A stretch of 60,293 nt of DNA, filler included. It is 5 parts of 5 records of this genome, joined end to end, with 100 filler letters (N's around TTAATTAATTAA, not from the genome) between each part and the next. Parts side by side here need not be neighbours in the genome. Positions count along the whole stretch, not along the records: positions 28,559 to 51,013 come from DRR723986_66968; 4 more parts are not named here. One strand, given 5' to 3'. Position numbers and translations under genes: made by a program. The notes below the pieces were generated by a model. The model saw only the letters and a program-made list of their open reading frames with translations. It did not search any database and was not told the DNA's origin. Positions 26,275 to 47,400 of this stretch are shown one piece after another (within the stretch, counting starts at the first letter, position 1; each line of letters opens with the position of its first letter).

Positions 26275-26286
26275 AATTTTTTTACC

Positions 26287-28344: not shown

Positions 28345-28394
28345 AAAAAGTACAAGGTCTCAAGTACAAAGTACCAAGTAGGCACGGCTCACAC

Positions 28395-28457: not shown

Positions 28458-28458
28458 A

Positions 28459-28558
28459 NNNNNNNNNNNNNNNNNNNNNNNNNNNNNNNNNNNNNNNNNN
28501 NNTTAATTAATTAANNNNNNNNNNNNNNNNNNNNNNNNNNNNNNNNNNNNNNNNNNNN
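28459..28558. other. Artificial contig spacer
   Basis: N-run with TTAATTAATTAA. Confidence 0.98.
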
Positions 28559-28825
28559 ATAAGCAAAGAATCTAAGGTGACTGGCAACTTTGCGGTTAAT
28601 CATGAATTTCTTTTATCAAAGTTTAAATAAAGAAGCCTGTCCTAGATTTCTTATCCTATTTACCGTTAGGAAAGCGGATATACGGAATAAATACATTTGG
28701 CCTTTATTCACATCGTACTAAAACCATTAGATGCACTAGTATTTTAGCTACTTTGGTCCCCGAATTAGGAAAACAAAATTATTGCTATTCGCATCATTGC
28801 GGATAATTTTTAAAATAAATAAGCT

Positions 28826-29590: not shown

Positions 29591-29868
29591 TGTCTTTAAA
29601 CTCTCAATTAGGAGAGTTTAAAAACTTCTATTTTTTGAATACTTCCTCTGCGTAACCCCATAATACCAAGGAAGCATATCCCTTATTTTTGATTTCTAAT
29701 CCTACCTCAATTCAGTCTAATTTATCTGAATGAAATCCTTATTTTAGTCTAAGAGAAACCTCAAATACCTGATGTAAGCAACTGCAAAAAAGAAAGTTGC
29801 GAATTGCGTTTATACTGGTCGTTGTGCTTTATCTCGAATATCTAATTGTATTTTTAACATAACTAAAA

Positions 29869-30666: not shown

Positions 30667-30810
30667 AAAGGTTAGCGAATTTACAGGTGTTACCCAATTT
30701 TACTGACGCATACCTCCCAGCCTTTGACGTTTTTAGACCTCACCTATTTTGTGCCTAATCAGTAGATTTGAATAGGTAAAAATCAAAGACACTACAAATT
30801 CAAAATAACT

Positions 30811-31248
30811 ATGGCACTGATTAATCCATACATCAACTTTAACGGGAATGCAGAGGAAGCATTCAATTTTTACAAATCTGTCTTTGGCGGGGAATTCGCA
30901 AATATCACACGCTTTAAAGACATGGACATCCCAGGGAATCCAATAGCAGATCATGAAAAAGAAAAGATCATGCACATTGCCTTACCCATCGGTCCAAATA
31001 TCCTGATGGGCAACGACGTCCCTGAAAGAATGGGTAGGGTAAATGAAAATGAACACAGGTCTAAAATATCAATTGCCGCAGAAAGCAAGGAAGAAGCTGA
31101 ACGCATTTTTAATGGACTTACTGTTGGAGGCACTATCGAAGTCCCTATGGATGAAAGTCCTTGGAGCTCTTATTTTGGGATGTTCCGTGACAAATACGGG
31201 ATTGAATGGATGGTGGATTTTGACCCAAGACACAAAGGAAAAGTCTAA
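30811..31248 (+). CDS. VOC/PhnB-like glyoxalase family protein
   Basis: NPYINFNGNAEEAFNFYKSVFGG; FGMFRDKYGIEWMV. Confidence 0.92.
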   Translation: MALINPYINFNGNAEEAFNFYKSVFGGEFANITRFKDMDIPGNPIADHEKEKIMHIALPIGPNILMGNDVPERMGRVNENEHRSKISIAAESKEEAERIFNGLTVGGTIEVPMDESPWSSYFGMFRDKYGIEWMVDFDPRHKGKV

Positions 31249-31465
31249 GTTGTAATCACCTAAATCAGTACCAATAGTATGCTCCCAATAAGCCTAGTCT
31301 TGTTGGGAGTGTTAATTTTTAATCCTTTCTTCGAGTTAAGATAATTTGCTAAATGCATAACCAAAGCTCTATCCTAGAATAAAGAATCACTCAATATTCC
31401 TGAGAATTAAAATCTTATCAACCAAACGCTACCTAGACATAATTCTTAATTTAGAATACAAATCA

Positions 31466-31984
31466 GAAGCCACAGCGAATTGGGGCAAAAGAAACTTTAC
31501 CAATCGAGATCGCCATGTACGGTTTTACGAAGCCATACATAGCAAAAGTGAAGGCGAGTTTCGGGCAAAACTTGAATATTTCGAGCATGAAAACCATGGC
31601 ACAGTACCTCCTATCGCATTTCACAATGGCATTTCCGCAATTTTTGAAGGGTATGGCCTTACCTACCGGGATGTAGAAAGCATAGAACAACTGAAGGAAC
31701 ATTTCCAATCTATTTCCAATCGACTATCCTATGATTTTAGCCCGCCTGAGTATCTGGTCAATCAACTAGGCTACCAAATGGCACAAAATGATAAGGCTAA
31801 GGCAATGGATTTCTTTATTCTGAATACAGAAAACTATCCTAATTCATTTAATGCCTTTGACAGCTTAGGAGAGTTTTATGAAGTCACTGGGGAAAAAGAA
31901 AAAGCAATAGAAAACTATACAAAATCTCTGGAACTCAATCCTGATAATGAACACGCCAGAATGAATATAGAAGTCTTAAATTAG
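31466..31984 (+). pseudogene. 5'-truncated alpha/beta esterase-TPR gene remnant
   Basis: The frame of ORF 31778..31984 extends upstream with no start (...YFEHENHGTVPP...LVNQLGYQ...YPNSFNAFDSLGE...SLELNP). The catalytic-His region and TPR remain; the nucleophile half is missing. Confidence 0.75.
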
Positions 31985-32009
31985 GTAAGGATTCATTTTG
32001 CCTTACAAT
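31982..32009 (+). repeat. 28-bp direct repeat, left copy (att-like)
   Basis: TAGGTAAGGATTCATTTTGCCTTACAAT; 27/28 identical to 35802-35829; internal dyad GTAAGG/CCTTAC. Confidence 0.85.
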
Positions 32010-32122
32010 CTGGAATCCCACAAGAAATCTATCGAATCCGTCCAGAAAGCCACCGAACTTCTAGTCGCCTCCGTCCTAAAAGAGATCAAAGACCAAACAA
32101 AGAAAGTGGCTTAGCTCCGCTT

Positions 32123-32872
32123 TCAATCTTCTCTAAGACCATAATTATAGAGATAAAATGAAATGTCAGTTAAGGCAATGTTTGAAATTGCGTCTTTAAA
32201 AGCATTAATTACTACACGCATTTCTTTAAGATCACCACGTAAATTGTTCCATAAATTTTTCTCTACTAAAAAACCATGGGAAATTAAGGTAGATCTATCT
32301 TGAATATTCAGTATTTCAAACCTATTATTAAAAGTGCTTGTAAAAATTAATTTCTCTATTTCTATAGAATATTCTTTTCCTTGATTCATCTTATGTAAAT
32401 CAACGAAGTCCTTTAATAACATCAAGTCGTCAAAATAGACATTTTGAACCTTTTGAATTAAAGATAAAAATTTGCTAGGTGACAGTTTTTTTCTCGCCAT
32501 TGCCACTCCCAATTTCCCGCAAATTTGTGCCTTCCTCTTATCGTTCAATTGAGAAATATAATAGAACATTTTTTCAGTAAAATCCTCCTCAGCATTTTGA
32601 ATCAAATAGGAAAACTCACTCCTTTCATTCTGACTAAGGGTTTCAAAGTATTTAAAAAAGTATGCTATTTGTTTTAGCTCTACTCTTGATTTCCAATTTC
32701 TAAGATCTTCAATGAAAGGCTTAAGTAAGGAATATGCAGGGATTCCTAAAAAGACCGTCGTTGCTAAATCAAAGCCGGACCCAATTATTTCCTCGGTGTT
32801 TTTTACTAGCTCAGCAGAGGATTTTTCGAATTCCTTTGAGGCGATAAACTCTCCAAGCTCTTGATTTGTCAT
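32123..32872 (-). CDS. Hypothetical protein (accessory; possibly defence-related)
   Basis: Probable start MTNQELGEF within ORF 32123..32995; AT-rich; helical LNDKRKAQICGKL region. Confidence 0.6.
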   Translation of the reverse strand: MTNQELGEFIASKEFEKSSAELVKNTEEIIGSGFDLATTVFLGIPAYSLLKPFIEDLRNWKSRVELKQIAYFFKYFETLSQNERSEFSYLIQNAEEDFTEKMFYYISQLNDKRKAQICGKLGVAMARKKLSPSKFLSLIQKVQNVYFDDLMLLKDFVDLHKMNQGKEYSIEIEKLIFTSTFNNRFEILNIQDRSTLISHGFLVEKNLWNNLRGDLKEMRVVINAFKDAISNIALTDISFYLYNYGLRED

Positions 32873-33045
32873 TTCTTTTTTTGTGATCTTATAAATCCTT
32901 TTTCCTGAGGTTACATTACTTCGGTTACACCGATATTTTACTTTAACCAGACTGCTAAAATCAGCATAATAAAAGCTATCAAACAATAATACCACGGCTT
33001 ATCCATACCCTTAATTTACGAAGAAATCGCCTATTCTTGAAAGTC

Positions 33046-33275
33046 TTACCATATCTTCTCCAGCTCCCACAGAGCATCACTCATTAGGGAGAACCTTCGA
33101 AGTTCCAGGTTATGGATTGCATCCACCACAGACGCTCGGATCTCATGGCCTTTCATCTTATGCTCTTCCCAGCAAGCAGAACACTTAATCCGCTCCAGCT
33201 TCGCAGCTATCCGGGCATTCAGGACTTCCAGTTCATTCAGAATGCTTGATTCTTCGGTGATAGTGATCTATCCAT
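33046..33275 (-). pseudogene. Small ORF remnant lacking an in-frame start (phage-like)
   Basis: Reads ITITEESSILNELEVLNARIAAKLERIKCSACWEEHK...LWELEKIW*; the ATG at 33275 is out of frame; visibly GC-richer than its neighbours. Confidence 0.35.
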
Positions 33276-33418
33276 GGCACGACAATACAGAGCCCATATT
33301 TGCCTTTTGTTCTTTTTGACTCAGGATTACATAGTTTGACAGGAATTGAGTAAATTTTAAAAAGAATAAGAAACGTGTAAACATTTAAGCTTTCAAGATC
33401 TCTCAATAATTATCAAGT

Positions 33419-34039
33419 ATGGATAAATTAGTTTTATTCTTTATTTTCATTTTAGCATCACATCATTCTTTTGCTCAAAGTGGAAGTATTACCTCACTTC
33501 CAAACTCAATTTCTATCCAATCAAATTCGCCTATTAGAGCTCAGCCTAATCATTCAGGCAATTTGATTTTAAGAACTAATGGAATCACCAAAGCATTACT
33601 ATTAGATAGAATTGGAGAATATTTGGAGATTAAGATTGACTCCCTGAATGCATTTGTCAGCTATGCTTTCTTAGTTCAGGACTCAGAGGAAATAAAACAA
33701 TTTGCATACAACATCAGATATGAGTCAAAAGTAAAAGCCGAAGAAATTAAAGACTCCATTTTTAAGGTAAAGTTTAGGTTAGAACAAGTTGAACAGAATG
33801 AAATTTTTCAACAGAAACTAACACAAATGATAGAAAAGTATGGCGAAACAATTGGAAAGAAAATAGCTTTTGGGAATGTTTGGATCGGTATGACTGAAGA
33901 AATGCTATTGGAAAGCTGGGGACATCCAAATGATATAAATCGAACTGCTGTCGCTGGAATGATTAAAAAGCAATATGTTTATCCAAACTATCGATATGTT
34001 TATGTTGAAAACGGAAAAGTCACTGCTTGGCAAGATTAA
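33419..34039 (+). CDS. Secreted hypothetical protein with BamE/DUF2845-like C-terminus
   Basis: Signal peptide; VWIGMTEEMLLESWGHP...YVYVENGKVTAWQD. Confidence 0.65.
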   Translation: MDKLVLFFIFILASHHSFAQSGSITSLPNSISIQSNSPIRAQPNHSGNLILRTNGITKALLLDRIGEYLEIKIDSLNAFVSYAFLVQDSEEIKQFAYNIRYESKVKAEEIKDSIFKVKFRLEQVEQNEIFQQKLTQMIEKYGETIGKKIAFGNVWIGMTEEMLLESWGHPNDINRTAVAGMIKKQYVYPNYRYVYVENGKVTAWQD

Positions 34040-34082
34040 GGATCAAATTTTTAGTTTGATCGGAATTAACTAGCTTTTAAGG

Positions 34083-34928
34083 ATGGATATAGCTTCAGCA
34101 AAAGAAAAACTCAATTCTAGAATCAAGCTCTTCACGTGGATAGGTGGTATTTCTGCCATATTTGCAATAATCCCTCTTATCTGGGCTGGTATCCAAGTTA
34201 TTCAAGTCCAATCCTTTTTTAAGGAAAACGAATTGGGCGACTTCATTGGAGGAACATCAGGGACGTTCGCATCATTTGCAGGTCTTGCCTTTGTATATGT
34301 TGGGTTTCTAGGACAACAACTTCAAATATTAATGCAGCAGGAGGAGCTTGAGATGAACCGTAAAGAAATGCAGGCTACACGTTTAGAGATCCAGGGCCAA
34401 AAGAGACAACTTGAGCTACAAAATAAACAGTTTGAAAACCAACTATTCGAAACAACATTTTTCAATCTTATAAACGTCTACAAGACTTCATTATCAACAA
34501 GTATCAGACCTTCATGGGAAGTTGATTTAAACAGAAAACTAAATTCTGCATTAATAGTAACTGAACCTGATGGGACTGGAGGCTATCAACAAATAGGACC
34601 TACAAAATCCTTCGATGAAATTCCGATTGAGGTAATAATAGAAGCAATAATGACCTTCCCTTTTGATTTAATTCTAGGGTTTAGAGAAGCAATTGAACCT
34701 GTTATTGCAATACTTCTACATATACAGCATAAAGAAAAAACTCATCATCTAACAACCTTGTTGTATAGTATTCCAAAAAGAGATAAGGTAATTTTTATAT
34801 ATTACTATATCGCTCAAAAAGATCACCTAACTAAAACTGAAAAAGCTCTGGTAAAAGAGCTATTATTGATTTTTCCAGAAGAAATTTTTAAATCTAATAC
34901 ACACAAACTGTGGATTGAAAAAAGTTAG
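34083..34928 (+). CDS. Putative phage abortive-infection-like membrane protein
   Basis: Two TM helices, LGDFIGG, Gln-rich coiled coil, then QLFETTFFNLI; architecture recalls putAbiC-type proteins (not searched). Confidence 0.5.
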   Translation: MDIASAKEKLNSRIKLFTWIGGISAIFAIIPLIWAGIQVIQVQSFFKENELGDFIGGTSGTFASFAGLAFVYVGFLGQQLQILMQQEELEMNRKEMQATRLEIQGQKRQLELQNKQFENQLFETTFFNLINVYKTSLSTSIRPSWEVDLNRKLNSALIVTEPDGTGGYQQIGPTKSFDEIPIEVIIEAIMTFPFDLILGFREAIEPVIAILLHIQHKEKTHHLTTLLYSIPKRDKVIFIYYYIAQKDHLTKTEKALVKELLLIFPEEIFKSNTHKLWIEKS

Positions 34929-34959
34929 TCGTTCGAAACATATAGATAATGTAATCATT

Positions 34960-35610
34960 TTACCAATCATCTTCAAGCTCCTTGGAGAAATATGGTTCCA
35001 AGCCTAAGAGAAAACCATAGGCATTGATATGCATCTCGTGAAGCAATGCACTTCGATTCACTTGACCAAGCATTTCTCTTTTATTAGGCTTCTTGAATGT
35101 CTCATAGATTCCGTATTGTTCAATCATGTAAGTAATCGGCGTTTCCGTTCGAGAAAGTCCGAGGCTCGCATTGGCTTCAGTAACAGCCAATAAATTATCG
35201 ATAGTTATCCTAATCTTCTTGTCTTTGCACTCAATCTTAAGTGTGTGATAGGTCAAATACTCATAAGTTGTTTTCTGAGTACCAAAAAATTTGAAATACA
35301 CATCAGAACTAATTGGAAATATCCCCTTTACGATCACCAATCCATTAACTGGGTCAGAGATATCAATCACTGACTTAGCACTTTTATAGTAGTCACTAAC
35401 ATATTTCAGAGCTATTCCATACAAAGCTTGCTGATTAGCATCAAACTCAAGAATTGTCTGATAAACTACCTCCCCATCTTGAAAAGGGAAATCAGGCAAT
35501 GGATATATTTCTGGGACATCAGGTTTCTGTTCCGATGAATACATATTGTCTTGTGCCCTTACAGTAAAACAAGTCACAAGCCCTAAAAGTAATAAAAGTC
35601 TGAATTTCAT
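34960..35610 (-). CDS. DUF4468-like secreted protein
   Basis: Start MKFRLLL; YKSAKSVIDISD..GLVIVKG...LKIECKDKKIRITI. Confidence 0.7.
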   Translation of the reverse strand: MKFRLLLLLGLVTCFTVRAQDNMYSSEQKPDVPEIYPLPDFPFQDGEVVYQTILEFDANQQALYGIALKYVSDYYKSAKSVIDISDPVNGLVIVKGIFPISSDVYFKFFGTQKTTYEYLTYHTLKIECKDKKIRITIDNLLAVTEANASLGLSRTETPITYMIEQYGIYETFKKPNKREMLGQVNRSALLHEMHINAYGFLLGLEPYFSKELEDDW

Positions 35611-35801
35611 ATGGCTGAGATTAGTACACGTACAATTTAGGTAAATTCTTACTTTCTCCATTCTTGGCTTTGCGACTCTGCTCTTCGAGTCCCTATAAAT
35701 ATCGCGAATGTAATTTCGAAGTTATACCCTAGGATTTGCACTCCTTCAAAGTATACTCAGAATTAGAAATTCTTCACCAAGTTCATTATCCTAAAACCAT
35801 C

Positions 35802-35829
35802 TAGGTAAGGGTTCATTTTGCCTTACAAT
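35802..35829 (+). repeat. 28-bp direct repeat, right copy (att-like)
   Basis: TAGGTAAGGGTTCATTTTGCCTTACAAT. Confidence 0.85.
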
Positions 35830-36097
35830 AAGGAGTCAAACACATTAGCTAAAGTCCCAAAGACTTTAATTATAGACTCAAACATATTAAGGAAGGACTC
35901 AATCACTCAACTGAAAGTCCCAAAGACTTTAATTAAAGAGAAAATCACTCGGCGGAAAGTCCCAAAGACTATAGTTAAAGAAAAAATCACTCTACGTAAG
36001 GACTCAGGGACTTTAATTAATGACTCAAACACATTATTGAGAGTCACAGGCACTATAATTATAGACTCAAACATATTATGGAAGGACTCTGAGTCCT
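35830..36097 (+). repeat. Degenerate 21-bp tandem array (12 units plus a terminal palindrome)
   Basis: Units include AAAGTCCCAAAGACTTTAATT (35851, 35914) and ATAGACTCAAACATATTA(a/t)GG (35872, 36061); exact 21-nt register. Confidence 0.9.
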
Positions 36098-36166
36098 AAA
36101 AAGAACCTTTTCGGCCCAAACATCAGTTAGAGAAATCAACTGAGTTTAACAAGATAATACAGCTAT

Positions 36167-37180
36167 ATGGAAATAGGAATTGATAGTTTCGCAGCTTCTC
36201 CCGACAATCAGTTGGACGGTTCTAAATCACTAAGGGAACTGTTGGAGAGAATAGAATTGGCAGACCAAGTGGGTTTGAGTTATTTCGGCATTGGAGAGCA
36301 TCATCGCAAGGACTTTTTGGACTCCGCTCCCTCTATGATTTTAGCCGCAGCTGCTGCCAGAACCAAAAACATCCGACTTGGAAGTGCCGTCACCGTACTG
36401 AGTGCTTCCGATCCCGTTCGTGTATTTCAAAACTATGCTACGCTGGATTTGCTTTCCGAGGGTCGTGCAGAAATAGTAGCCGGGAGAGGTTCTTTTACCG
36501 ATGCATTCCCATTATTTGGTTTAAATCTTCAGGATTACAATGAGTTATTTGAAGAGAAACTGAATCTACTTTTAAAAATCAGAGACAATGAGGTGGTCAC
36601 CTGGTCAGGGAAATTTAGGCCTGCACTTCGCAACCAAGCGATCTATCCTCGTCCTAAACAGGAGAAGTTGCCTATATGGGTTGGAGTGGGTGGTACCCCC
36701 TCCTCTTTTGAAAGAGCTGGCAAGCTAGGTTTGCCTTTGATGGTGGCGATCATTGGCGGTGAGACGCATCGTTTTGCGCCTTTGGTAGACTTATACCGAA
36801 GAGCTGGAGAAAGATCAGGATTTGCCAAAAGTGACCTGAAAGTAGGATTGCATTCTATAGGATTTGTTGGCAAAACCAGGCAGGAAGCCATCGCAGACTT
36901 CTACCCTAGCTATAAGGAAATGTTTGATAAAATAGGCAGAGAAAGAGGCTTTGGTCCTGTGACAAAAGCAGGATTTGATGCTCAAAACACCGAAACTGGA
37001 GCTTTATTGGTAGGAGAACCAAGAGAGATCGTGGATAAAATCTTGAGACACAGCGAATCCTTAGGTGGCCTGGAAAGAGTAACATTCCAAATGGATGCCG
37101 TTAAGGACCATCAAAAATTGATGAAAGCAATCGAGCTTATTGGTTCCGAGATTGTCCCTTTTGTAAAAGATAAAAATTGA
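36167..37180 (+). CDS. LLM-class (luciferase-like) flavin-dependent oxidoreductase
   Basis: FGIGEHHR; IRLGSAVTVLS..DPVRV; GRGSF. Confidence 0.93.
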   Translation: MEIGIDSFAASPDNQLDGSKSLRELLERIELADQVGLSYFGIGEHHRKDFLDSAPSMILAAAAARTKNIRLGSAVTVLSASDPVRVFQNYATLDLLSEGRAEIVAGRGSFTDAFPLFGLNLQDYNELFEEKLNLLLKIRDNEVVTWSGKFRPALRNQAIYPRPKQEKLPIWVGVGGTPSSFERAGKLGLPLMVAIIGGETHRFAPLVDLYRRAGERSGFAKSDLKVGLHSIGFVGKTRQEAIADFYPSYKEMFDKIGRERGFGPVTKAGFDAQNTETGALLVGEPREIVDKILRHSESLGGLERVTFQMDAVKDHQKLMKAIELIGSEIVPFVKDKN

Positions 37181-37310
37181 GTTTATCACACCTTCATTAA
37201 TGCGTAATTAGTAAGTTAGTATTAGAGATCTCCTGAGGGTTGGGGGAATTAGTGTATAGTAGTATTACGAGAGAGTGAATTAGATGAATTCGGGATGATA
37301 TTACAATATT

Positions 37311-37805
37311 ATGAGTAGAATTTTTAGTACTCTTCTTATTACAAGTTTTGCGCTGTTTGGATTCATTCAAGATTCAAGCCCTACTAAATCGAAGCTGAAA
37401 AGTCTATTTCGCCAAAGCATCCTTCAGGAAAGTAAAGACTTATTAAGTACTGTCTCTAATCCTTGGGAAACTGATAACACCAATGGTCAATATTATACTG
37501 CGGATACCATAAAAATGGTGAACGTAAAGAAACGACCATTTGATTACCGGTATTGTGAAACAATGAATTGGACATTTTATAAAAGTGATTGGTTTTTCCT
37601 CGTAGAAACTCAAACCTGCAAAGAACCATCTTCACAAAAAGTAAGCAAAAATGAATTTCGATTTAAAACTAAAATTAAGAACTCACCAAGTGGTTTAATC
37701 CTTGAGACTTACAAAGCAAATGAATTAATGGAAAGGTTCTTAGTAGTATCTATTATTGAAACTGAACAATATGACGAAGTGACTTTATATAGATTAAAAA
37801 AATAA
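37311..37805 (+). CDS. Hypothetical secreted protein (cassette-like)
   Basis: 164-aa ORF with signal peptide, followed by a degenerate attC-like site. Confidence 0.65.
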   Translation: MSRIFSTLLITSFALFGFIQDSSPTKSKLKSLFRQSILQESKDLLSTVSNPWETDNTNGQYYTADTIKMVNVKKRPFDYRYCETMNWTFYKSDWFFLVETQTCKEPSSQKVSKNEFRFKTKIKNSPSGLILETYKANELMERFLVVSIIETEQYDEVTLYRLKK

Positions 37806-37811
37806 AAAGTG

Positions 37812-37864
37812 GCCAACACCACTTAAACTGCATTAAAACGGCGCTTAGCTAACCTTTATAAGGC
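37812..37864 (+). other. Degenerate short attC-like site
   Basis: GGCCAAC just after the stop, then an imperfect inverted repeat, ending tTTATAAGGC (GTTRRRY-like with G lost). Confidence 0.35.
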
Positions 37865-37897
37865 ATTAAAAAGTAAACCTGCACTAAACCTTGAACT

Positions 37898-38200
37898 TTG
37901 AGGATATCAGAAAAAAATAAGATAGTAAGTAGCAAGGAACAGTTAAAGAATATGATAAGTCACATTATCTTATCATCGTCCGGCCTCATTCTTCTTTATG
38001 GATTCTATAGAATTGACAATTCTGAAACAGTATCACATTATTTTAACCTTGCTGCAGGAGACCCATCCGGTTTTAGATTTATAGTCTTCCTGGGAATTCT
38101 TAAATATGGAATACTCCTAATAGGGACAGTTTTGACACTTATGTCAGCTATAATGCTGGTAAAAAAATTGAAAATAAGAATGACACAGAACAACGTTTAA
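37898..38200 (+). CDS. Hypothetical 2-TM membrane protein
   Basis: 100-aa ORF with two hydrophobic segments. Confidence 0.5.
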   Translation: MRISEKNKIVSSKEQLKNMISHIILSSSGLILLYGFYRIDNSETVSHYFNLAAGDPSGFRFIVFLGILKYGILLIGTVLTLMSAIMLVKKLKIRMTQNNV

Positions 38201-38287
38201 GAAAATATATTCGAGAGACAAGTTTTAAAGCCGAACCTATAGCCAAAACAGCCAAGTCAATTACACCAATTAAAAATTATAGAATCA

Positions 38288-39064
38288 ATGCACAGTTCAC
38301 GAAGGAAGTTTTTTTTGAATTTGGGAGTAACTGGATTAGGCATCATTAGTTCACCAAGTATTCTTTCAGCTAATAACCACAGCAAAAATTACGGTATGAA
38401 TAAAAGTAGAAAGAGGGTAACAATTCTGTTTCAAGGAGACTCCATAACTGATGGAAACCGCTCGCGAAACCAAGACTGGAATCATGTCATGGGGCATGGA
38501 TACCCCTACATTATTTCAAGTCGTCTTTGGTTCGACTATTTGGATAAAGGCTTAATGTTTTATAACAGAGGCATTAGCGGAAATACCATTCAGGATTTAA
38601 ATGCTCGCTGGCAAGAAGATACCATTGACTTGGCTCCCGACGTGCTAAGTATTTTGATTGGTGTGAATGATGTATCCAGAATAATAGAAAATGAATACTC
38701 TGTTAAAACTTGGGAAGAGACCTATATTCAGGTTTTAGACAAAACAAAAAAAGCATTGCCAATCACTCAGCTTATTCTGTGTGAACCATTTGTTCTGCCT
38801 GCTGATGATATGATCAGAATTGAATGGACCAAGGAAAAGACAGAATCCTATCAAAGCGTAGTTGCAGAAATGCGAAAAACAGTAAAGAAATTAGCTGAAA
38901 CCTACGATGCCATTTTTATTGAATTGCAACAGCCCTTTTTGGATGCCTGCGAAAAAGCTCCTGCCAACTATTGGATTTGGGATGGAATTCATCCCATGCC
39001 TGCCGGTCATGAATTAATTGCTCGTCAATGGATAAAAGTAGTGAGTGAAAGATTGGAGTTCTAA
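38288..39064 (+). CDS. SGNH/GDSL hydrolase with Tat signal
   Basis: SRRKFFL; FQGDSITD; NRGISG; IGVND; DGIHP. Confidence 0.93.
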   Translation: MHSSRRKFFLNLGVTGLGIISSPSILSANNHSKNYGMNKSRKRVTILFQGDSITDGNRSRNQDWNHVMGHGYPYIISSRLWFDYLDKGLMFYNRGISGNTIQDLNARWQEDTIDLAPDVLSILIGVNDVSRIIENEYSVKTWEETYIQVLDKTKKALPITQLILCEPFVLPADDMIRIEWTKEKTESYQSVVAEMRKTVKKLAETYDAIFIELQQPFLDACEKAPANYWIWDGIHPMPAGHELIARQWIKVVSERLEF

Positions 39065-39138
39065 GAGCTTAATTAACTAACTCGCGTCTGCCCTGTAGAA
39101 ACTCAACCCTTTTTAGCCAATAAATTCAAAGCCATAGC

Positions 39139-39723
39139 ATGACTCAAGAAATCTGGTATACTGTAAGAAACACCTATGACCCTGATTTTGAAAAGGACTT
39201 TAGTTGGGAAAAGTATATCGATTGGTCAAAATTGACTCATTTAAAAGAACTAGTTTCATTAGATGGAATGCTTAACGAGCTGTGTTTTGAGCCTGATTAC
39301 AACAGTGAATACGATTGGAAATTTATAATAACGGATGAAGACTATGTGACGAATTTCTTCAATTCTATTGACTTTGTTCTAGAGAGAGTTCATGGAGAGA
39401 AACACTTCAATTTGATTGCAGCAATTAAAGAACCTTCAAATGAAAAATCTAAGGTTTTAGAAAAGGATTTTGAATTTGTGGGATATGAATTGCTGGACTT
39501 GGATTATGGAACAAGTGCCCTTACAAATTGTGGTGGATTTGATGAATCCTTTAACCCAAGTGATCTAAACGAATACGGTTTAGTCGATAACTTTCAACGA
39601 GCAAGGAAAATTCAAAAAGACTTGCTTGAGAACAATCCCAGAGAACACCATGCTCACTGTAATTTGTTTGAAGTTTGGCGGCACAAAACCATTGGAAGAA
39701 AAATTATAGCCGACTTAAAATAA
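39139..39723 (+). CDS. Hypothetical protein
   Basis: 194-aa ORF; SALTNCGGF...LNEYGL...EHHAHC motif. Confidence 0.7.
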   Translation: MTQEIWYTVRNTYDPDFEKDFSWEKYIDWSKLTHLKELVSLDGMLNELCFEPDYNSEYDWKFIITDEDYVTNFFNSIDFVLERVHGEKHFNLIAAIKEPSNEKSKVLEKDFEFVGYELLDLDYGTSALTNCGGFDESFNPSDLNEYGLVDNFQRARKIQKDLLENNPREHHAHCNLFEVWRHKTIGRKIIADLK

Positions 39724-39857
39724 AATTGACCTATCCAATCCTATTTTACTGTCTTTAAGTTTAACGAGAAGTACATGAATTTAACAAACTACATGAAATT
39801 TGTTTTTGCAGCATGGATAGTTTTAACCAGTTTACAATTCATAAAAATACTTATTGA

Positions 39858-40202
39858 GTGAACGATAGGCCAAACATTCTGGTAGTTTGTGGAAGAAACA
39901 AACGAAGAAGCAGAACCGCTGAATATATATTTAAGAACGATCAACGGTTCAATATCCGATCTGTTGGACTTAGCCCTAAAAGTGAACGTCAAATTAAAGA
40001 GCGTGATATTGAATGGTCCGATTTGATATTTGTGATGGAAGATGGACAAGGCAACCGGATTTCAGGAACATTTCGACACTTAGAAATTCCTGAAATTGAA
40101 GTTCTCCAAATTGCAGATGAGTACGAATATCTGGATGAAGAATTAATAGAAATGCTGACTGACAGGATTAACTCAACGCTGGAAGTGGTCTATAAAATCT
40201 AA
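39858..40202 (+). CDS. Low-molecular-weight protein-tyrosine-phosphatase-like protein
   Basis: VVCGRNKRRSRTAE (CX5R); WSDLIFVME; IADEYEYLD. Confidence 0.85.
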   Translation: MNDRPNILVVCGRNKRRSRTAEYIFKNDQRFNIRSVGLSPKSERQIKERDIEWSDLIFVMEDGQGNRISGTFRHLEIPEIEVLQIADEYEYLDEELIEMLTDRINSTLEVVYKI

Positions 40203-40280
40203 GAAAAAAGCAGCTAATCAGAAAGACGGCTATTAAACCACAGTTCAACGGTTTCAAAAATCAATCTCAGCAGGCATACC

Positions 40281-40307
40281 ATCCTGCTTCTGGAGAAGCA
40301 GGATAAC
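40281..40307 (+). repeat. REP-like palindrome
   Basis: ATCCTGCTTCT-gg-AGAAGCAGGAT-AAC; related copies at 28432, 42273 and 44333. Confidence 0.8.
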
Positions 40308-40479
40308 ACTAGTCTATTTTTTTTGGAAGTATGCAACAAAGAAATTCCCCTCTCCTATAGATGCTCTTGACGAAATCCTTAATTTAGGATCATTTAAACC
40401 TGAAGACCTGTGAACAATCCCGATATAGACGCAATGGGGTTAGGTGAGTTGCGTATAGACAAGTGTTAGTGCCAAGCGT

Positions 40480-40983
40480 ATGACAACAGATAAACAATAC
40501 TACCAAATCGACTTTTTGACCAGCGTTGTTGAACAATGTCCAGACAATTGTGTGGTACAATTACAGTGCAACTGGACATCAACTGCTTTTTCGGACAATG
40601 ACTTAGCTGAAATAAAAAATCAATCTATTAATTCCATAAAAGACTGCAAGACAGACAGACAAGTGGAAGTTTTTAAATCTTCTCATTTTGACAGTTATAA
40701 ATATCAAAACACAAAACTCGGACAGTTTCCTATTTGGGACGGTGGACTGAATTTGCTTATCAGGGCTGACAGCAAAAATGAAATTATAGAAAGAATATCT
40801 AAATACCTTGACAATAGTGATGTTTGCCATTGCCAAATTTATACGCAACACAAACACATTGCAAAGTGCTATGACAGTTTTATGCATTGCTGGCTCGACA
40901 GCAGTGCGTTTAAATTTACGACAGAACAAAAAGAAAAATTCGCAGCCAAAGACATTGACATTTATTTCGATAATGAAGGATAG
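40480..40983 (+). CDS. Hypothetical protein in an integron-type gene cassette
   Basis: Preceded by GTTAGTGCC (40465) and followed by its reverse complement GGCACTAAC (40991). Confidence 0.75.
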   Translation: MTTDKQYYQIDFLTSVVEQCPDNCVVQLQCNWTSTAFSDNDLAEIKNQSINSIKDCKTDRQVEVFKSSHFDSYKYQNTKLGQFPIWDGGLNLLIRADSKNEIIERISKYLDNSDVCHCQIYTQHKHIAKCYDSFMHCWLDSSAFKFTTEQKEKFAAKDIDIYFDNEG

Positions 40984-40990
40984 AACGCCA

Positions 40991-41124
40991 GGCACTAACA
41001 CTGGTTTTGCGTCAGGCGGGCTGACGTGCAAGCTTGGAGCTTTGTGCTTCTATTCAAGTTCAGTACAGGTTGACAGCTTTGTACTCCGAAACCCGCCCGA
41101 ACACAAAGCCCGAAACCGTTAGAT
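40991..41124 (+). other. attC-like recombination site (about 130 bp)
   Basis: Starts ...CTAAC and ends GTTAGAT (GTTRRRY); arms GGTTTTGCGTCAGGCGGG and CCCGCCCGAACACAAAGCC pair imperfectly, with an extra base. Confidence 0.75.
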
Positions 41125-41137
41125 GCAATACACGGAC

Positions 41138-41560
41138 ATGAAAAAGTGGATTAAAGAACGACTGGACTACTGGGACTTAAAATCATTCTTCGGGACAGTG
41201 ATTTTTATTTCAATTTGCCTTTACGGACTTTACTACTTTTCTGACATCCGAGATCGATTCCGACAGACGGACTTAGAAACTTTCAAAGGACACACTACAG
41301 GAGAAATTATTTCAATTGAACCAATTGTAAGGAATAAACAAACAAAGTGGAAAGGGACCGAGATTTATACCGACAGTTATAAGATCCGATACACTTATAC
41401 TGTCAATGGACAAAGTTTTGAAAAAACAGACTTTATTCAACTTAGTCCCAAGAATGAGAATTTATTAACGAGGATACTGGAAAGAAAAACGACCGACACT
41501 TTCGAAATACATTTCGACTTGGACGACCCAGAGAAAAGTATTGTGGCTACCGTGCACTGA
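41138..41560 (+). CDS. Membrane-anchored hypothetical protein (DUF3592-like) in a gene cassette
   Basis: One TM, then TTGEII...YKIRYTYTVNGQSF...IHFDLDDPEKS; bounded by GTTAGATGCA and a degenerate TGCAGCTAAA. Confidence 0.7.
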   Translation: MKKWIKERLDYWDLKSFFGTVIFISICLYGLYYFSDIRDRFRQTDLETFKGHTTGEIISIEPIVRNKQTKWKGTEIYTDSYKIRYTYTVNGQSFEKTDFIQLSPKNENLLTRILERKTTDTFEIHFDLDDPEKSIVATVH

Positions 41561-41707
41561 AGTGATGCAGCTAAAAACTAGGTTTTCGTTGCGTGCAAAG
41601 CACGAACAACCAGCTCTTCCAGCTCTTCGAGATTTGTAATCTCGAAGCTTATCCGTTGAATGTCTAATTCTTACTCAGCAATACCTCTCTAGTAAACATT
41701 TGCATAA

Positions 41708-41727
41708 TTGGTGTATATTTACACCAA
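41708..41727. promoter_or_regulatory. parDE operator palindrome
   Basis: TTGGTGTA-tatt-TACACCAA 11 nt before the antitoxin ATG. Confidence 0.6.
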
Positions 41728-41738
41728 ACTAGTTAATC

Positions 41739-41975
41739 ATGGGAAGACAGAGCATTTCATTAACCGATCCAAATGACAATTGGCTACAAGAAAAAGTAGC
41801 TGCTAAGGAATATGCTAGCAAAAGTGAATTGGTAAATGACCTGATTCGACAAGAACGAAAACGGCAGGAAAGTATAGCCTTGCTTCGACTAGAATTGATA
41901 AAAGGTGAAGAAAGTGGCTACTCCAAGAAAACTAAAGACGAGATTTTAGCCTTAGCAAAAAACGGCCTGAAATGA
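41739..41975 (+). CDS. parD: ParD-family (RHH) antitoxin
   Basis: EYASKSELVNDLIRQ...LIKGEESG. Confidence 0.88.
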   Translation: MGRQSISLTDPNDNWLQEKVAAKEYASKSELVNDLIRQERKRQESIALLRLELIKGEESGYSKKTKDEILALAKNGLK

Positions 41976-42247
41976 CTTACCTGCTCAGTCAAGAAGCAGA
42001 AGATGATATTGTTCGAATATACAGATTAGGCTTTATGAACTTTGGGGAAGCGCAGGCTGATAAATATTTCGAAGCACTTTTCAACTGTTTTGAACGAATT
42101 GGTGAGAATCCATATCAATTCCCGCAAGCATCACATATTCGAAAATCTTATCATTATTGTGTTTGTGGATCAGATACAATCTATTTCAAACTAACTACTG
42201 ATGAAATACCGGAAATAATCCGAATAATAGGAAGGCAAGAATTCTAG
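41972..42247 (+). CDS. parE: RelE/ParE-family toxin
   Basis: YLLSQEAEDDIVRIY..G..NFGEAQADKY; ATGA overlap with the antitoxin. Confidence 0.9.
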   Translation: MTYLLSQEAEDDIVRIYRLGFMNFGEAQADKYFEALFNCFERIGENPYQFPQASHIRKSYHYCVCGSDTIYFKLTTDEIPEIIRIIGRQEF

Positions 42248-42568
42248 AATAACCATAACAAAATCAACCTTCATCCTACATCTGGAAAAGCCAGGCAACA
42301 CAAATTGTTTTTTTAAGTATGAAACTACCCCCTCCTCTCCTGTAGCTGCTCTTAACAAAATCCTTTATTTAGACTGAACACAAAAAAAAGGCTGGTTGCT
42401 TTTGAAAACCTGATAGAAATCTGAAAAGTAAATACATCAAACTATTTAAAAGGACTGGCCTATCTGCCTTTTAGCAAGAGCCATTTTTACTTTAGAGACT
42501 AGCGAAAGTAAAATTAGCTCCTCTGGATTTGCAATCTCCAGCCTACAAACAAGCGAAAACATGAAATC

Positions 42569-42618
42569 TTTCGATCGTAACCGAGAATTAACATGTTAAT
42601 TTTCGGTTACGATCGAAA
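42569..42618. promoter_or_regulatory. 50-bp near-perfect palindrome upstream of the ATPase gene
   Basis: TTTCGATCGTAACCGAGAATTAACA|TGTTAATTTTCGGTTACGATCGAAA (24/25 complementary). Confidence 0.75.
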
Positions 42619-42637
42619 ATTTACATATTTTTAACTC

Positions 42638-43765
42638 ATGATAACTCGTCAAATAGAATCTGAGCTGCGAAAAAGGATTCATCAAGGAAAGCTTTTGGTA
42701 ATCATCGGTCCTAGGCAGGTAGGGAAAACTACGCTCATGAAGCAGGTCTTAGATTTCCCCAATGAAAAGGTATTATGGCTGAATTGTGATAACCCAGATG
42801 ATCGTCAGACCCTTTTTGAAGTTACAACTTCAGCCCTAAAGTCCCTTATCGGAGGTTATAAATTGGTAGTAATTGACGAAGCTCAACGCGTACCAAATAT
42901 TGGTCTTACGTTGAAAATATTGGCAGATGAATTTCCCGAAGTTCAAGTCATAGCTTCAGGTTCATCAGCATTAGACTTAGCCAACTCAATTAAAGAGCCG
43001 TTGACAGGTCGCAAACGAGAGTTTCAACTTTACCCAATTTCTATAGAAGAACTTTGCTTGCATACTTCTCCTAGGGAAGAGAAACGGCTTTTGGAGCGGC
43101 GGATGATCTTTGGCTTTTATCCAGAAGTAATCAACCATCCAAGCGAAGCACAAGAAGCACTTCAGGAAATTACCAGCAGCTATCTCTACAAAGATATTTT
43201 GAGTTTGGCGGATGTTCGTATGCCTACAGCTTTACAGAAGTTATTACTGGCTTTGGCACTTCAGGTCGGTTCAGAGGTTACATTCAACGACCTGGGAAAT
43301 ACAATTGGGATAGATAAGGAAACAGCAGAAAAGTATCTAGACTTGCTAGAGAAGGCATTTGTGATTTTTCGTCTGAACTCGTTTAGCAGGAATATGCGTC
43401 GAGAGCTCAAAAAAAGCAGAAAGATCTACTTTTGGGACAATGGCGTGCGAAATGCCATTATCAATAATTTCAACTCCCTGGATTTACGAAATGACAAAGG
43501 AGCGCTTTGGGAGAATTTCATAATCAGTGAGCGAATGAAATACCTGAGCTACAATCGCATTCATTCTAACGTTTATTTTTGGAGGACAACGACAGGAAAA
43601 GAACTGGACTGGCTGGAAGAGCGTGAAGGGAAGTTATTTGCTTTTGAGGCGAAATGGAATCCAGAGCGAAGGGCCAAATTGCCTCTGGGTTTTGAAGAGG
43701 CATATCCAGAAACTGAGTTTCGAGTTGTTAATCGAGAAAATTATTTGGATGTGCTGACTCAATAA
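42638..43765 (+). CDS. AAA_14 ATPase with DUF4143 (PD-(D/E)XK-like) C-terminal domain
   Basis: GPRQVGKTT; IDEAQ; KIYFWDNG; LWENF; YFWRT..KELD..FEAKW. Confidence 0.92.
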   Translation: MITRQIESELRKRIHQGKLLVIIGPRQVGKTTLMKQVLDFPNEKVLWLNCDNPDDRQTLFEVTTSALKSLIGGYKLVVIDEAQRVPNIGLTLKILADEFPEVQVIASGSSALDLANSIKEPLTGRKREFQLYPISIEELCLHTSPREEKRLLERRMIFGFYPEVINHPSEAQEALQEITSSYLYKDILSLADVRMPTALQKLLLALALQVGSEVTFNDLGNTIGIDKETAEKYLDLLEKAFVIFRLNSFSRNMRRELKKSRKIYFWDNGVRNAIINNFNSLDLRNDKGALWENFIISERMKYLSYNRIHSNVYFWRTTTGKELDWLEEREGKLFAFEAKWNPERRAKLPLGFEEAYPETEFRVVNRENYLDVLTQ

Positions 43766-43888
43766 AGGGAATTCTGGAAAGCTGAAAATTTCATTTTATT
43801 TATTGCAATTAAATCTAGGTAAACATGACGAAATTCTTAATTTAGAATCAACTTTTCCATACGTTTATAAATTAACTAATCACTTAAA

Positions 43889-44323
43889 ATGAAGAGACAA
43901 TTAACTTTTATTGGGGCCATATTTTTCCTAATCTCATGCTCATCCACTCAGCCACTCTCCAAGAACGTAAAGCAACAGCTAAAGGATAATGATACATTTG
44001 TTGTGAATGAAATTTCGACCGACAAATCCTATGGACTTTCTCCTAAAAATCCTGTAGAAGTGGGAGGAGCTAAAGACTCTGAAGGCCCTTTAAACGAGAG
44101 ACGTTACTTAAATGCATTGACAGGCCCAAATGGAGAAAAAATCTACTATTATCGACAAGGAAGTTGCTGCCCTGTTAAAAGTGAAAACGGCCTAATGGGA
44201 ACCGCGATGTTGGACAATTATAGAGTCACTTGGGCGAATTCAAAAGATACAGTGTCCATCTACATAAACATGTATGATTCAGGTTTATTAAAAGCTCCAT
44301 TTGGATTCGGCATTAAAAAATAA
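43889..44323 (+). CDS. Conserved hypothetical lipoprotein
   Basis: Lipobox LISC; GPLNERRYLNALTGPNGE..GSCCP..LDNY..YINMYD. Confidence 0.75.
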   Translation: MKRQLTFIGAIFFLISCSSTQPLSKNVKQQLKDNDTFVVNEISTDKSYGLSPKNPVEVGGAKDSEGPLNERRYLNALTGPNGEKIYYYRQGSCCPVKSENGLMGTAMLDNYRVTWANSKDTVSIYINMYDSGLLKAPFGFGIKK

Positions 44324-44411
44324 TACTTAAATATCCAGCTTTTGGAGAAGCAGGATAACCAAATTTGCGCTCTCCACGAAAACCTCCGTGCTCTCTGCGG
44401 TTAATCAAAAA

Positions 44412-44450
44412 AAATGCCCCCATCAAGTTCATCACTTTCTGGGGGCATTT
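44412..44450 (-). terminator. Terminator of the RND operon
   Basis: AAATGCCCCCA...TGGGGGCATTT preceded by an A-tract. Confidence 0.7.
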
Positions 44451-44472
44451 CAATTATAATTAGAGAAACTAC

Positions 44473-47400
44473 TTAATGATGCTCATGCTGTGTTGGATCA
44501 TAATTAGCTTCTAACTCTGCCAAGCCTTTTTTACCGTAAGCAATTTTAGTAATCACCACATATAAGACTGGCACAAAGAAGATCGCCAAGAAGGTAGCTG
44601 CAAGCATCCCTCCGATCACGGTAAAACCAATTGTCTGTCTTGCTACAGCACCAGCTCCATTCGAAATAGCCAATGGAACCACACCGAGGATGAAGGCAAG
44701 AGAAGTCATGATAATCGGTCGAAGTCTCAATTTTACCGCTTCCAAGGTTGCCTGGAGTAGTGGCATTCCTACGTCAACACGTTCCTTGGCAAACTCTACA
44801 ATCAAGATGGCGTTTTTCGCCGCCAAACCAATCAGGGTAATCAAACCAATCTGTGCATAAATATTATTATCCAACTTCGGCAAGAAGTGAAGGGCGATGA
44901 TCGCACCAAAAGCACCCAGTGGCAAAGCCAATAGAACTGAGAATGGGACTGACCAGCTTTCATACAAGGCTGCCAATAGCAAGGAAACCAACACAATCGC
45001 CAAGGCAAAAATCAGAATAGTACTACTTCCAGAGGAAAGTTCCTCTCTACTCAAGCCGGAAAAGTCATAGCCATATCCCGCCGGTAAGGTTTGAGCTGCA
45101 ACTTCCTCCAAGGCTGCCAAGGCTTGACCCGAACTATAGCCAGGAGCGGCATTACCATTTACTTCCGCAGATCGAAACAAGTTATAGTGAGAAATAACTG
45201 GCGCATTTTCTACCACCTCATAGCTAATCAACGCACTCAAAGGCACTGCCTCTCCTCCACTACTTTGTACATAAAATTGTTCTAAGTTGTTCATTCCAGC
45301 TCGGTAAGCTGTATCCGCTTGTGCTACCACACGGAAGTTTCGGCCATATCTGGTGAAGTCATTCACATAGGAGCTTCCCATGTAATTCGACATAGTCGTA
45401 AAGATCTCAGTAAGCGGAACTCCCAATTTCTTAGCTTTCTCTCGATCCACTGTCACATGATATCCGGGAGTTTTGGCAGTAAAGAAGCTATACGCCATTG
45501 CGATTTCCGGACGCTGATTGGCCGCAGCTAGGAACTGCCCAAGTGCTCCTTCAAACTCCTTGATATCTCCAGTAGCAGATCGCTGCTCCAGCATAAAGCT
45601 AAATCCACCTGTGCTACCCAATCCTGGAATCGCAGGAGGAGGTACCACCACAATACTGCCTTCGGTAATTGAAGCAAACTTTTGATTCAAAGTTGCCAAC
45701 ATACCTCCAAGTTGCAGAGAAGGGTCTTTTCTATCATCCCAAGGATCCATCTGTACGAAGAAAGTAGCCGCGTTTGGCTTGAAGGAGAAGTTGATCACGT
45801 TCAGCCCTCCGATACCAGTTACGTGATTGATGCCCTCGGTTTCTTCCAAAATAGCGTTCATCTTCTGCATCACGGCCTGCGTTCTGTTACTCGCAGCACC
45901 TTCAGGAAGCTGAAGAGTCACATAAAGTCTTCCCTCATCCTCAGTAGGTAAGAAACCGGTTGGTTTGGTTTGGAAAAGCCCGAAAGTACCAGCGAAAACA
46001 CAAACGAGTAAAATCAATACAAGTGGTGCTCTTTTGATGCTTGTTCTCACCCCATTGGTATAGCTTGCAGTAGTACGCTCAAACCACAAGTTGAACTTGT
46101 AGAAGAACTTATTCAGTCCTTTACCATTTTCATTTACTTCAGAAGGCTTCAGCAAGAGAACGCACAAAGCAGGTGTCAAACTCAACGCTACAAAGGCCGA
46201 AAGCAATACTGAGATCGCTATGGTAATGGCAAACTGCTGATACATTCTACCTACAATACCTGGGATAAAACCTACCGGAATAAATACCGCCGCCAAAATC
46301 AAGGCAATCGCTATAACCGGCGCAGTGATATCTTTCATCGCAAGACGAGTAGCTTCTTTTGCAGATATCTTTCTGGAATCTATGTAATGCTGAACTGCTT
46401 CCACTACCACAATCGCATCATCCACCACTATACCGATAGCCAATACGAAACCAAAAAGCGTCAGCGTATTGATCGTAAATCCGAGCAAAGGGAAGAAAAT
46501 AAACGTTCCAATAATAGATACAGGAATCGCCAAAACAGGCACTAAAGTCGCTCTCCAGCTCTGCAAGAAAAGGAATACTACAATAATCACGAGAATCAAT
46601 GCCTCCACAAACGTGTGCATCACCTCATTGATGGATACTTCTACTACAGATACAGATTCAAAAGGAACTGTATATTTCATATCTGTAGGAAAGCTCTTCT
46701 GCAATTCATCCAAAGCTGCATATACACCTTCGGCTGTCTCCAGGGCATTACTTCCCGGAGCTTGATAAATCAACAAAATCGCAGCTTCTTCCCCGTCCAA
46801 AGTAGAATATCTACCATAGTCGAATTGTCCCAATTCCGTTCTAGCGACGTCTTTCAGGTAAACTATTGAACCATCCTCAGGATTTGTTCTTAATACGATA
46901 TCATCAAATTCTTCTGCCCTTTCCAATCGGCCATTTACGGTAATAGGATATTCAAATGCCTGTGTATCGTATTGAGGCATACTTCCCACTGTACCTGCTG
47001 CTACTTGTAAGTTTTGTTCTTGAATGGCAGCAGTCACTTCGCGAGCTGTGATTCCGTATTGAGCAAGTTTATCAGGTTTCAGCCAAACACGCATACTGAA
47101 ATCCTGACCGATCGCTGTAATATCACCTACACCGTTTACACGAAGAAGTGCATCTTTGATAAAGATGTTAGCGTAATTGGAGAGAAACTTAGAATCATGA
47201 GTTCTTTCCGGAGAAGTGATACTTAATACCATCATGATCGATGGATTCCTTTTTCTTACCGTTACCCCCAATCGACGCACAGCCTCCGGAAGAGAGGGTT
47301 CGGCGATGGACACTCTATTCTGTACATCCAGTGTCGCGATGTTAATGTCTGTCCCTACTTCAAAGGTGACGTTCATCTGCATCTGTCCCGTACTGGTGTT

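Follow-up and report, generated by a model that had tools for sequence, protein, structure and literature searches.

The window analysed here, a 60,293-nt stretch of DNA in five joined parts, very probably holds at 40324-41661 an integrase-less relic of an integron-like cassette array, of the kind that Cyclobacteriaceae and other Bacteroidota commonly carry. From left to right, the relic comprises the remnant of the 3´ end of a recombinase gene, an attI-like site, a first cassette, its attC of about 130 nt, a second cassette and a degenerate attC. In complete loci, the recombinase gene lies upstream of the cassettes and in their orientation, with attI just past its stop codon. Each cassette carries one or a few promoter-less open reading frames (ORFs) followed by an imperfect-hairpin site, and units are joined at G^TT (the caret marks the crossover). 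We suggest that, like IntI, the recombinase would excise and insert cassettes through recombination between attI and folded single-stranded attC. The features of the window are:

40324..40413, plus strand: remnant, the last 30 codons (stop counted) at the 3´ end of a tyrosine-recombinase gene, reading ..WKYATKKFPSPIDALDEILNLGSFKPEDL and then the stop
40424..40467, plus strand: attI-like site, an inverted repeat followed by 10 nt and the inferred crossover at G40465^T40466
40466..41118, plus strand: cassette 1, from TT to G, with an ORF at 40480-40983 (167 aa) and its own attC
40991..41124, plus strand: attC-like site, 'type A', with R'' GGCACTAAC at 40991-99, covarying arms, and R' G^TTAGAT at 41118-24
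41119..41655, plus strand: cassette 2, with an ORF from 41123 (or 41138) to 41560, 145 aa, DUF3592, and a degenerate site
41566..41661, plus strand: degenerate attC-like site ('type C'), R'' AAC changed to AAA, possible R' GTTGAAT at 41655-61

The initial annotation had read this region as integron-type cassettes, and its coordinates and the 9-mer complementarity across the first ORF all hold. The sequence GTTAGTGCC (40465-40473) has its exact reverse complement, GGCACTAAC (40991-40999), starting 7 nt past the TAG stop (40981-40983) of ORF 40480-40983, and in a repeat search the pair extends to 21 nt at 86%. Cassette 1 starts, after the G at 40465, with TTAGTGCC, the exact complement of GGCACTAA^C at its attC, and the element of about 130 nt that follows its ORF has its right end, GTTAGAT, at 41118-41124. 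Cassette 2, with ATG codons at 41123 and 41138, opens with TTAGATGCA; the expected R'' is TGCATCTAAC and the actual sequence, at 41566-41575, is TGCAGCTAAA. This 8/10 match had been pointed out in the initial annotation. The match is present, but the site is degenerate: besides the loss of AAC, the arms of 41566-41661 are not paired end to end, the fold consists of local hairpins only, and the site is absent from the hits of a hairpin scan (below). A 40-nt block within it (41570-41609) matches four places in G001, the nearest of the genomes compared, at 90% identity, and there the block lies directly 3´ of an intact R'', GTTGCCAAC on contig G001:C5 and GTGTGCCAAC on G001:C19. The partial hairpin that had been noticed upstream of the first GTT is also present (ACGCAA at 40429-34, TTGCGT at 40449-54), and can now be described more closely as an attI-like site preceded by the 3´-end remnant of an integrase gene; by itself this hairpin is not significant (z = -1.46 on folding).

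The cassette genes have an unusual composition, as the initial annotation had claimed. GAC codons make up 8.3% and 7.5% of the two ORFs compared with 1.8% in 13 long ORFs of the window, and ACA codons 3.6% and 2.7% compared with 1.5%. In 24 cassette ORFs of other arrays (loci L101-L175), GAC/(GAC+GAT) has a value of 0.52 (0.30 in 50 flanking ORFs), and third codon positions are A-richer than in the flanking ORFs. The cassette 2 protein belongs to Pfam PF12158 (DUF3592; 27.1 bits), and the 167-aa cassette 1 protein has no Pfam match. A homologue of the latter was found in one of the 201 genomes of our family sample (132 genera), as a C-terminal fragment with three stops (G114:C23) that also lies directly upstream of a type-A element.

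The signal rises far above chance only once relatives are added. In the window, exact pairs of GTT plus 6 nt and their complement, 150-3500 nt apart, number 26 compared with 20.4 in shuffles, a count with no power alone. Folding of 40985-41130 gives z = -0.94 for the bottom strand, which had been put forward as a check and is uninformative on its own, and z = -1.08 for the top strand, equally uninformative. A generic scan for AAC...GTT hairpins returned 7 hits in the window and 1-5 in five shuffles; among the 7, 40997-41120 is the only credible site, and the scan found no other well-formed attC in the window. A run of small co-oriented ORFs at 24850-31248 was considered as a further cassette array and is not recognisable as one.

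In the family sample, the 146-nt stretch 40985-41130 matches 53 of 201 genomes (a tally that counts G112 too) and 43 of 132 genera, at identities of up to 94%. An alignment of 30 copies is conserved from exactly AAC to exactly CG^TT, with flanks on either side that are mutually unrelated, and RNAalifold pairs the two ends of the element, the most divergent copy having compensatory changes. The genes between sites are variable, single and co-oriented, as the cassette reading of the initial annotation led one to expect. On G001:C3, for example, the type-A element lies between two unrelated co-oriented ORFs, and on G037:C3, which has three type-A copies in 3.7 kb, the right end of one copy, GTTGGGCGCA, complements the left end of the next, TGCGCCCAAC. 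For a general test of this R''/R' complementarity, we took the 6 nt before AAC and sought their complement next to GTT in the sequence available upstream, which was 1.5-3 kb or shorter. For 16 of 28 copies, GTT plus the exact complement of the copy's own flank is present (20 of 28 with at most one mismatch), compared with 3 of 718 exact matches when an upstream region was paired with the flank of another copy.

The same complementarity rule holds in an array of at least ten cassettes on G001:C1, whose attC sites are 70 to 197 nt long and unrelated in sequence. Among 67 sites, each bounded by two consecutive exact signatures, lengths range from 55 to 197 nt, the middle being variable, and 43 fall within 133-138 nt. 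Their consensus is nnn[C/A][T/C]AAC-A...AAA[A/C]C-GTT[A/G][G/T]nnn; the selection itself required AAC, GTT and the C that precedes GTT, and barred G after AAC.

These data bear on the possibility that the element of about 130 nt is a miniature inverted-repeat transposable element (MITE), a repetitive extragenic palindromic (REP) sequence, a structured RNA or a terminator, with incidental complementarity of its flanks. Such an element could also show cross-genus identity of up to 94% and sit in 3´ intergenic positions, and a true REP-like hairpin family does occur nearby, at 40281-40307. We nevertheless consider this explanation extremely improbable. Direct target duplications are absent; the left flank is no direct repeat of the right but, in the proportion given above, the reverse complement of the start of the preceding unit, and the flanks of the 30 aligned copies are unrelated to each other. 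The AAC and GTT boundaries are not transposon ends, the G^TT junctions are exact, and the elements are physically linked to a recombinase. A search of Rfam 15 with 36000-45000 of the window found nothing on 40985-41130 or 41561-41665 at E <= 1. MITE or non-coding RNA copies, which the initial annotation had raised as the reading that could displace its own, very probably do not account for the element.

As in attC, structure is kept and sequence is not. For 25 sites from different sequence families, the window's included, we calculated the duplex energy of every 5´ arm with every 3´ arm, using DNA parameters. The pairing of a site's own arms averages -17.8 kcal/mol (sd 3.7) compared with -9.3 (sd 2.9) for foreign arms, and in 23 of the 25 sites no foreign arm outdoes the site's own. 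The window's type-A site, slightly decayed with two stem mismatches relative to the family consensus, is one of the two exceptions, with an arm duplex energy of -13.3 kcal/mol against the family mean of -17.8. The unpaired spacer is asymmetric, with 0-3 nt after AAC (24/25) and 3-6 nt, mostly 4-5, before GTT (24/25), and the minimum free energy is lower on the bottom strand in 21 of 25 sites.

The covariation of the arms also speaks to an alternative in which the cassettes are real, but their sites recombine as duplex DNA in the manner of Xer and dif, through inverted recombinase-binding arms rather than a folded strand. Xer/dif modules have duplex sites of about 28 bp with conserved sequence; the sites here span 55-197 nt, vary in their middle and mostly measure 133-138 nt, and their arm sequences are not conserved. 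Arms that covary without sequence conservation are predicted by intrastrand pairing, and not by sequence-specific binding to a duplex, and the consistent asymmetry of the spacers and the better folding of the bottom strand point the same way. The duplex alternative draws some strength from the recombinase described below, which lacks the IntI-specific insertion and scores nearly as well with the XerA model as with that for IntI, and from attI, a short near-palindrome like duplex core sites. On balance we regard recombination of duplex sites as unlikely, and suggest that the sites would act as folded single strands, of which the bottom strand may be the one used.

The arrays are linked to one family of tyrosine recombinases. 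In at least 11 genomes (G089, G045, G030, G175, G128, G168, G177, G135, G149, G035 and G120, the last with a gene fragment), the recombinase gene lies upstream of a type-A element on the same contig, co-oriented with it and 0.6 to 29 kb away. We assembled 80 named recombinase loci, whose titles include Algoriphagus, Belliella, Mongoliitalea, Aquiflexum, Roseivirga and Solitalea as well as metagenome-assembled genomes (MAGs) labelled Bacteroidales, Flavobacteriales and others; for 40 of these loci the sequence continues for at least 1 kb past the gene. In 19 of the 40, an exact cassette signature begins within 220 nt past the recombinase stop, with chains of up to five links, compared with 2 of 38 when, as a control, the start window was placed 3.4 kb upstream of the gene. 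The arrays of relatives begin about 45-110 nt past the recombinase and are co-oriented with it, and 67 of 77 signature pairs (median length 867 nt) have their longest ORF in the same direction as the recombinase, these pairs being all those downstream of the 19 recombinases, unfiltered, with nested and chance pairs included. In complete loci, attI is an inverted repeat right after the recombinase stop, followed by ..CG^TT, with arms that covary between species (ATACGCAA/TTGCGTAT, ATACCCGCAA/TTGCGGGTAT, AATAACCGCAA/TTGCGGTTAT). An array adjoining an integrase gene and attI, as in an integron, is therefore found in relatives; the window has only the remnant and the attI-like site. At the level of whole genomes, co-occurrence of the type-A element with the recombinase is weak (42/53 compared with 87/148, from lists compared by hand) and carries little weight, because the recombinase family is broad and the relatives are not independent. 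The link to a tyrosine recombinase that the initial annotation had supposed is thus upheld by linkage on the same contig, but the enzyme is not a canonical IntI.

A pair of related loci places the crossover at G^TT. L101 (Algoriphagus winogradskyi DSM 15360) and L102 (a MAG) are 97.5% identical and collinear through recombinase, attI, cassette 1 and attC to the G of G^TT, and have different cassettes thereafter. The next cassette of L102 (TTACCAGCAATG...) is also found in G001:C2 (L012), behind a different attC, from exactly TT onward. Integron-type recombination at G^TT is expected to give just this junction; this comparison comes from relatives and not from the window itself.

On the minus strand of G001:C5, polA and radA are followed by the gene for a 454-aa tyrosine recombinase and, 45 nt further on, by TTGCGTATAGCGACTC-G^TTAGCGGT, a 247-aa ORF, ACCGCTAAC, a 136-nt site, G^TTGGCAAC, a 269-aa ORF, GTTGCCAAC, a further site and the contig end. 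Pfam assigns the recombinase the domains Phage_integrase and Phage_int_SAM_4. Among solved structures, its best match is the integron integrase VchIntIA (2a3v), with E = 1.2e-38 by phmmer and E = 2e-17 by Foldseek, the fold comparison being made on a predicted model with a mean predicted local distance difference test (pLDDT) score of 90.2. Archaeal XerA (PDB 5hxy, 4a8e) comes second, at 9e-34 by phmmer and 9.6e-16 by Foldseek. Both relatives share the catalytic residues of the recombinase, and among 50 homologues R305, K330, R402, H425 and Y434 are invariant and H399 is nearly so.

The alignment with VchIntIA falls into two pieces (query 184-349 with chain 14-179, and query 378-452 with chain 246-320), whereas that with XerA is continuous. 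Between the pieces, 66 residues of IntIA (chain 180-245) correspond to only 28 in the recombinase, so that about 36-38 aa of the IntI-specific segment are missing. Likewise, the score with the curated integron-integrase model TIGR02249 is 216.3 bits, below the 265-bit cut-off, with a match split into 7-184 and 239-315; the score with NF040815 (XerA) is 208.5 bits, also below its cut-off of 220. Compared with a canonical IntI of the same family (G121, 327 bits), the recombinase is 30% identical, with about 36 residues gapped in segment 188-249, and the predicted model has no helix in the IntI-specific region. By sequence and model, then, the protein is IntI/Xer-like without the IntI-specific insertion, that is, without the additional domain (I2 region) of IntI. 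Because this insertion is missing, the enzyme must recognise its sites in another way than IntI does. Residues 1-175 consist of two beta-beta-alpha-beta-beta-alpha repeats, an N-terminal duplication of about 175 aa that has no Pfam match at E <= 10 and whose atlas neighbours are only unnamed Bacteroidota clusters with scores of 0.84 or less. One could speculate that this duplicated domain may share in site recognition.

The family is large. Homologues at E <= 1e-60 occur in 129 of the 201 genomes (G112 included), and 2979 clusters in a representative library match at E <= 1e-30, a net that surely takes in other Xer-like proteins. In databases they are called 'tyrosine-type recombinase/integrase' or 'site-specific recombinase XerD', and a few 'site-specific tyrosine recombinase/integron integrase'. 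A different tyrosine recombinase, of about 307 aa, is multi-copy at contig ends of G001 (L013, on G001:C19, 787-1640; L012, on G001:C2, 95-940), next to attC-like sites and a cassette, and could be an insertion element with arrays as its target.

Canonical IntI, scoring over the TIGR02249 cut-off, is present in four of the 201 genomes (G121:C1:365627-366592, G039:C13:43538-44470, G164:C261 and G129:C64), and the sites have the AAC...GTT architecture. One might thus see in the window an ordinary cluster of attC sites lacking integron integrases (CALIN) that relies on a canonical IntI encoded elsewhere in the genome. Canonical IntI is rare in the family, however, and none scores over the cut-off in the six array-bearing genomes examined. 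Two of the canonical loci have no exact cassette chain, and so may be In0-like; the arrays start directly behind the non-canonical recombinase instead. As far as the accessible rows of Table S1 of the IntegronFinder 2.0 paper (PMC9024848) go, Belliella baltica DSM 15883 has 0 complete integrons, 0 CALIN and 0 In0, the other Cyclobacteriaceae rows (among them Cyclobacterium and Echinicola) are likewise 0, and Algoriphagus is not in the table. We therefore consider service by a canonical IntI very unlikely, and return to the non-canonical recombinase as the probable partner of these arrays. B. baltica encodes a full-length orthologue of it, 58% identical (P0100).

Sedentary chromosomal integrons can have long, family-specific attC sites, as in the Vibrio superintegron with its repeats of about 120 nt, and the arrays described here resemble them in many respects. 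Their ORFs are co-oriented and mostly promoter-less, and behind each lies an imperfect hairpin that runs from ..AAC to G^TT; the start of a cassette complements its own R''; the crossover is at G^TT; and structure is kept rather than sequence. One attC type dominates the lineage, the cassettes are rare accessory genes, and the arrays are chromosomal. In contrast to chromosomal integrons, the recombinase lacks the IntI segment of about 36-38 aa, falls below the TIGR02249 cut-off, carries the extra N-terminal duplication and points the same way as the cassettes, and its stop codon adjoins attI. R' is GTT[A/G][G/T]nnn and not GTTRRRY, and the spacers are asymmetric, about 1 nt on one side and 4-5 nt on the other. 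An integrase oriented like its cassettes is also known from the 'inverted integrase' integrons, such as that of Treponema denticola, whose integrases are canonical IntI with the additional domain. The arrays also resemble the pdif modules of Acinetobacter plasmids, in which sites for an Xer-like tyrosine recombinase likewise set off one gene module from the next. The pdif sites, however, are duplexes of about 28 bp used by the host XerC/XerD, whereas here hairpins of 55-197 nt with covarying arms accompany a dedicated recombinase beside attI. XerA, for its part, works at a duplex dif site and is not known to serve a cassette array.

The system works like an integron, yet its integrase fails the criteria for a canonical one. 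Lacking the segment that defines integron integrases, the recombinase may be the reason why standard integron searches report nothing. Surveys, in the portions available to us, give integrons as nearly absent from Bacteroidetes: only In0 had been seen earlier, and then one complete integron in Salinibacter ruber (IntegronFinder 2.0; PMC9024848, in part). Bacteroidota are listed among integron-bearing phyla, with no detail in the passages available (PMC9668308, PMC8618304), and the accessible passage of a 2024 preprint on clades 'previously found without any integrons' cites a system found in Bacteroidota (10.1101/2024.07.02.601686). In the full-text literature searched, we came across no report of such a recombinase serving cassette arrays, and papers beyond its coverage may exist. 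We give an even chance to the broader proposal that Bacteroidota (Cytophagales, and records of Bacteroidales, Flavobacteriales and Sphingobacteriales) carry a large, separate integron-like lineage, whose recombinase never had or has lost I2, an insertion considered indispensable for the recognition of attC, and would read folded sites of about 135 nt in another way, perhaps with its N-terminal duplication, and which would be counted as 'no integrons' since finders require the IntI signature.

If the arrays are active, a major soil, marine and gut phylum owns cassette-capture machinery that current tools miss, and the cassette gene pool exceeds present counts. The assumed need for the IntI-specific domain in folded-attC recombination could then be tested on a natural counter-example, and a second, differently built structure-specific recombination system would be a possible genetic tool. 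For the window itself the meaning is modest: two orphan genes, one for a 167-aa protein of no family and one for a 145-aa DUF3592 protein, stranded as cassettes in a strain-variable region.

Several observations weigh against reading 40324-41661 as the relic of such a system. No single signal is statistically significant within the window alone. An integrase is absent from it, as the initial annotation had stated and tblastn with the full recombinase confirms, apart from the 30-codon remnant of a 3´ end. Twelve of the 28 type-A copies have no exact upstream partner, and 21 of the 40 recombinase loci no exact chain. In VchIntIA, the I2 segment grips extrahelical bases of the folded attC; with this segment missing, folded single-strand recombination is not a given. 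Finally, the block that contains the relic in the window, 39068-41708, is not bounded by attC sites. It is replaced by 90 nt in the syntenic region of G001:C1, which is otherwise 91-98% identical, and this absence in itself counts in favour of the relic. The junctions with G001 do not coincide with attC sites, however, so the presence or absence of this block does not stem from cassette recombination, and we rejected it as an insertion of that kind.

The remnant and the attI-like site have counterparts in relatives. The sequence 40324-40413, reading ..SPIDALDEILNLGSFKPEDL and then the stop, is homologous, together with its flank, to the 3´ end of intact recombinase genes on G001:C2 (L010 ~2320-2410) and G051:C11 (29683-29784, abutting a recombinase match at 28606-29685), and the TTGCGTATAG..GTTAG of the attI-like site is common to G001:C5 and L002. 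The copy in the window is probably inactive in cis, with both cassettes stranded and mobile at most in trans; the R'' of cassette 2 no longer has its AAC, which probably leaves this cassette fixed.

Further copies of the recombinase 3´-tail motif (..GAAATCCTTAATTTAG..) lie in the window at ~29733-29830, ~31437-31470, 42310-42380 and 43826-43850. After the copy at 29733 come an attI-like inverted repeat and GTTGTGCTT, for which no partner R'' was found, and on G001:C1 three tail-plus-attI units lie inside one array. This unit of about 100 nt, often kept without the gene, may hold arm sites or a promoter.

The surroundings of the relic differ between strains as well. Two more blocks, 31984-36093 and 37284-38249, differ from the otherwise syntenic G001:C1, and by this comparison the whole of 28.5-42 kb is a strain-variable zone. 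A ParD/ParE-type toxin-antitoxin pair at 41739-42247, directly after the degenerate site, is found in G001 at 98% identity without the two cassettes.

A 27-nt hairpin, ATCCTGCTTCTGGAGAAGCAGGATAAC, recurs after genes at 40281-40307, 28432-28458, 42273-42299 and 44333-44359. It is multi-copy in the family genomes, where it occurs in tandem every ~115 nt at G045:C10:12478-13084 and G189:C26:54120-54611, and appears to be a REP-like or terminator repeat distinct from the cassettes and their sites. Just upstream of the gene for an AAA_14/DUF4143 ATPase (42638-43765) lies a loopless 76-nt palindrome (42556-42631) with 38-nt arms that are 87% complementary; it is conserved in G001, and its only matches in Rfam are spurious ones to miRNAs. 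At 28459-28555, runs of N surround the linker-like ttaattaattaa, which we take to be an assembly gap or a masked stretch. A 42-nt tandem repeat at 35818-36099 gives rise to a repetitive 93-aa ORF (..KVPKTLI..).

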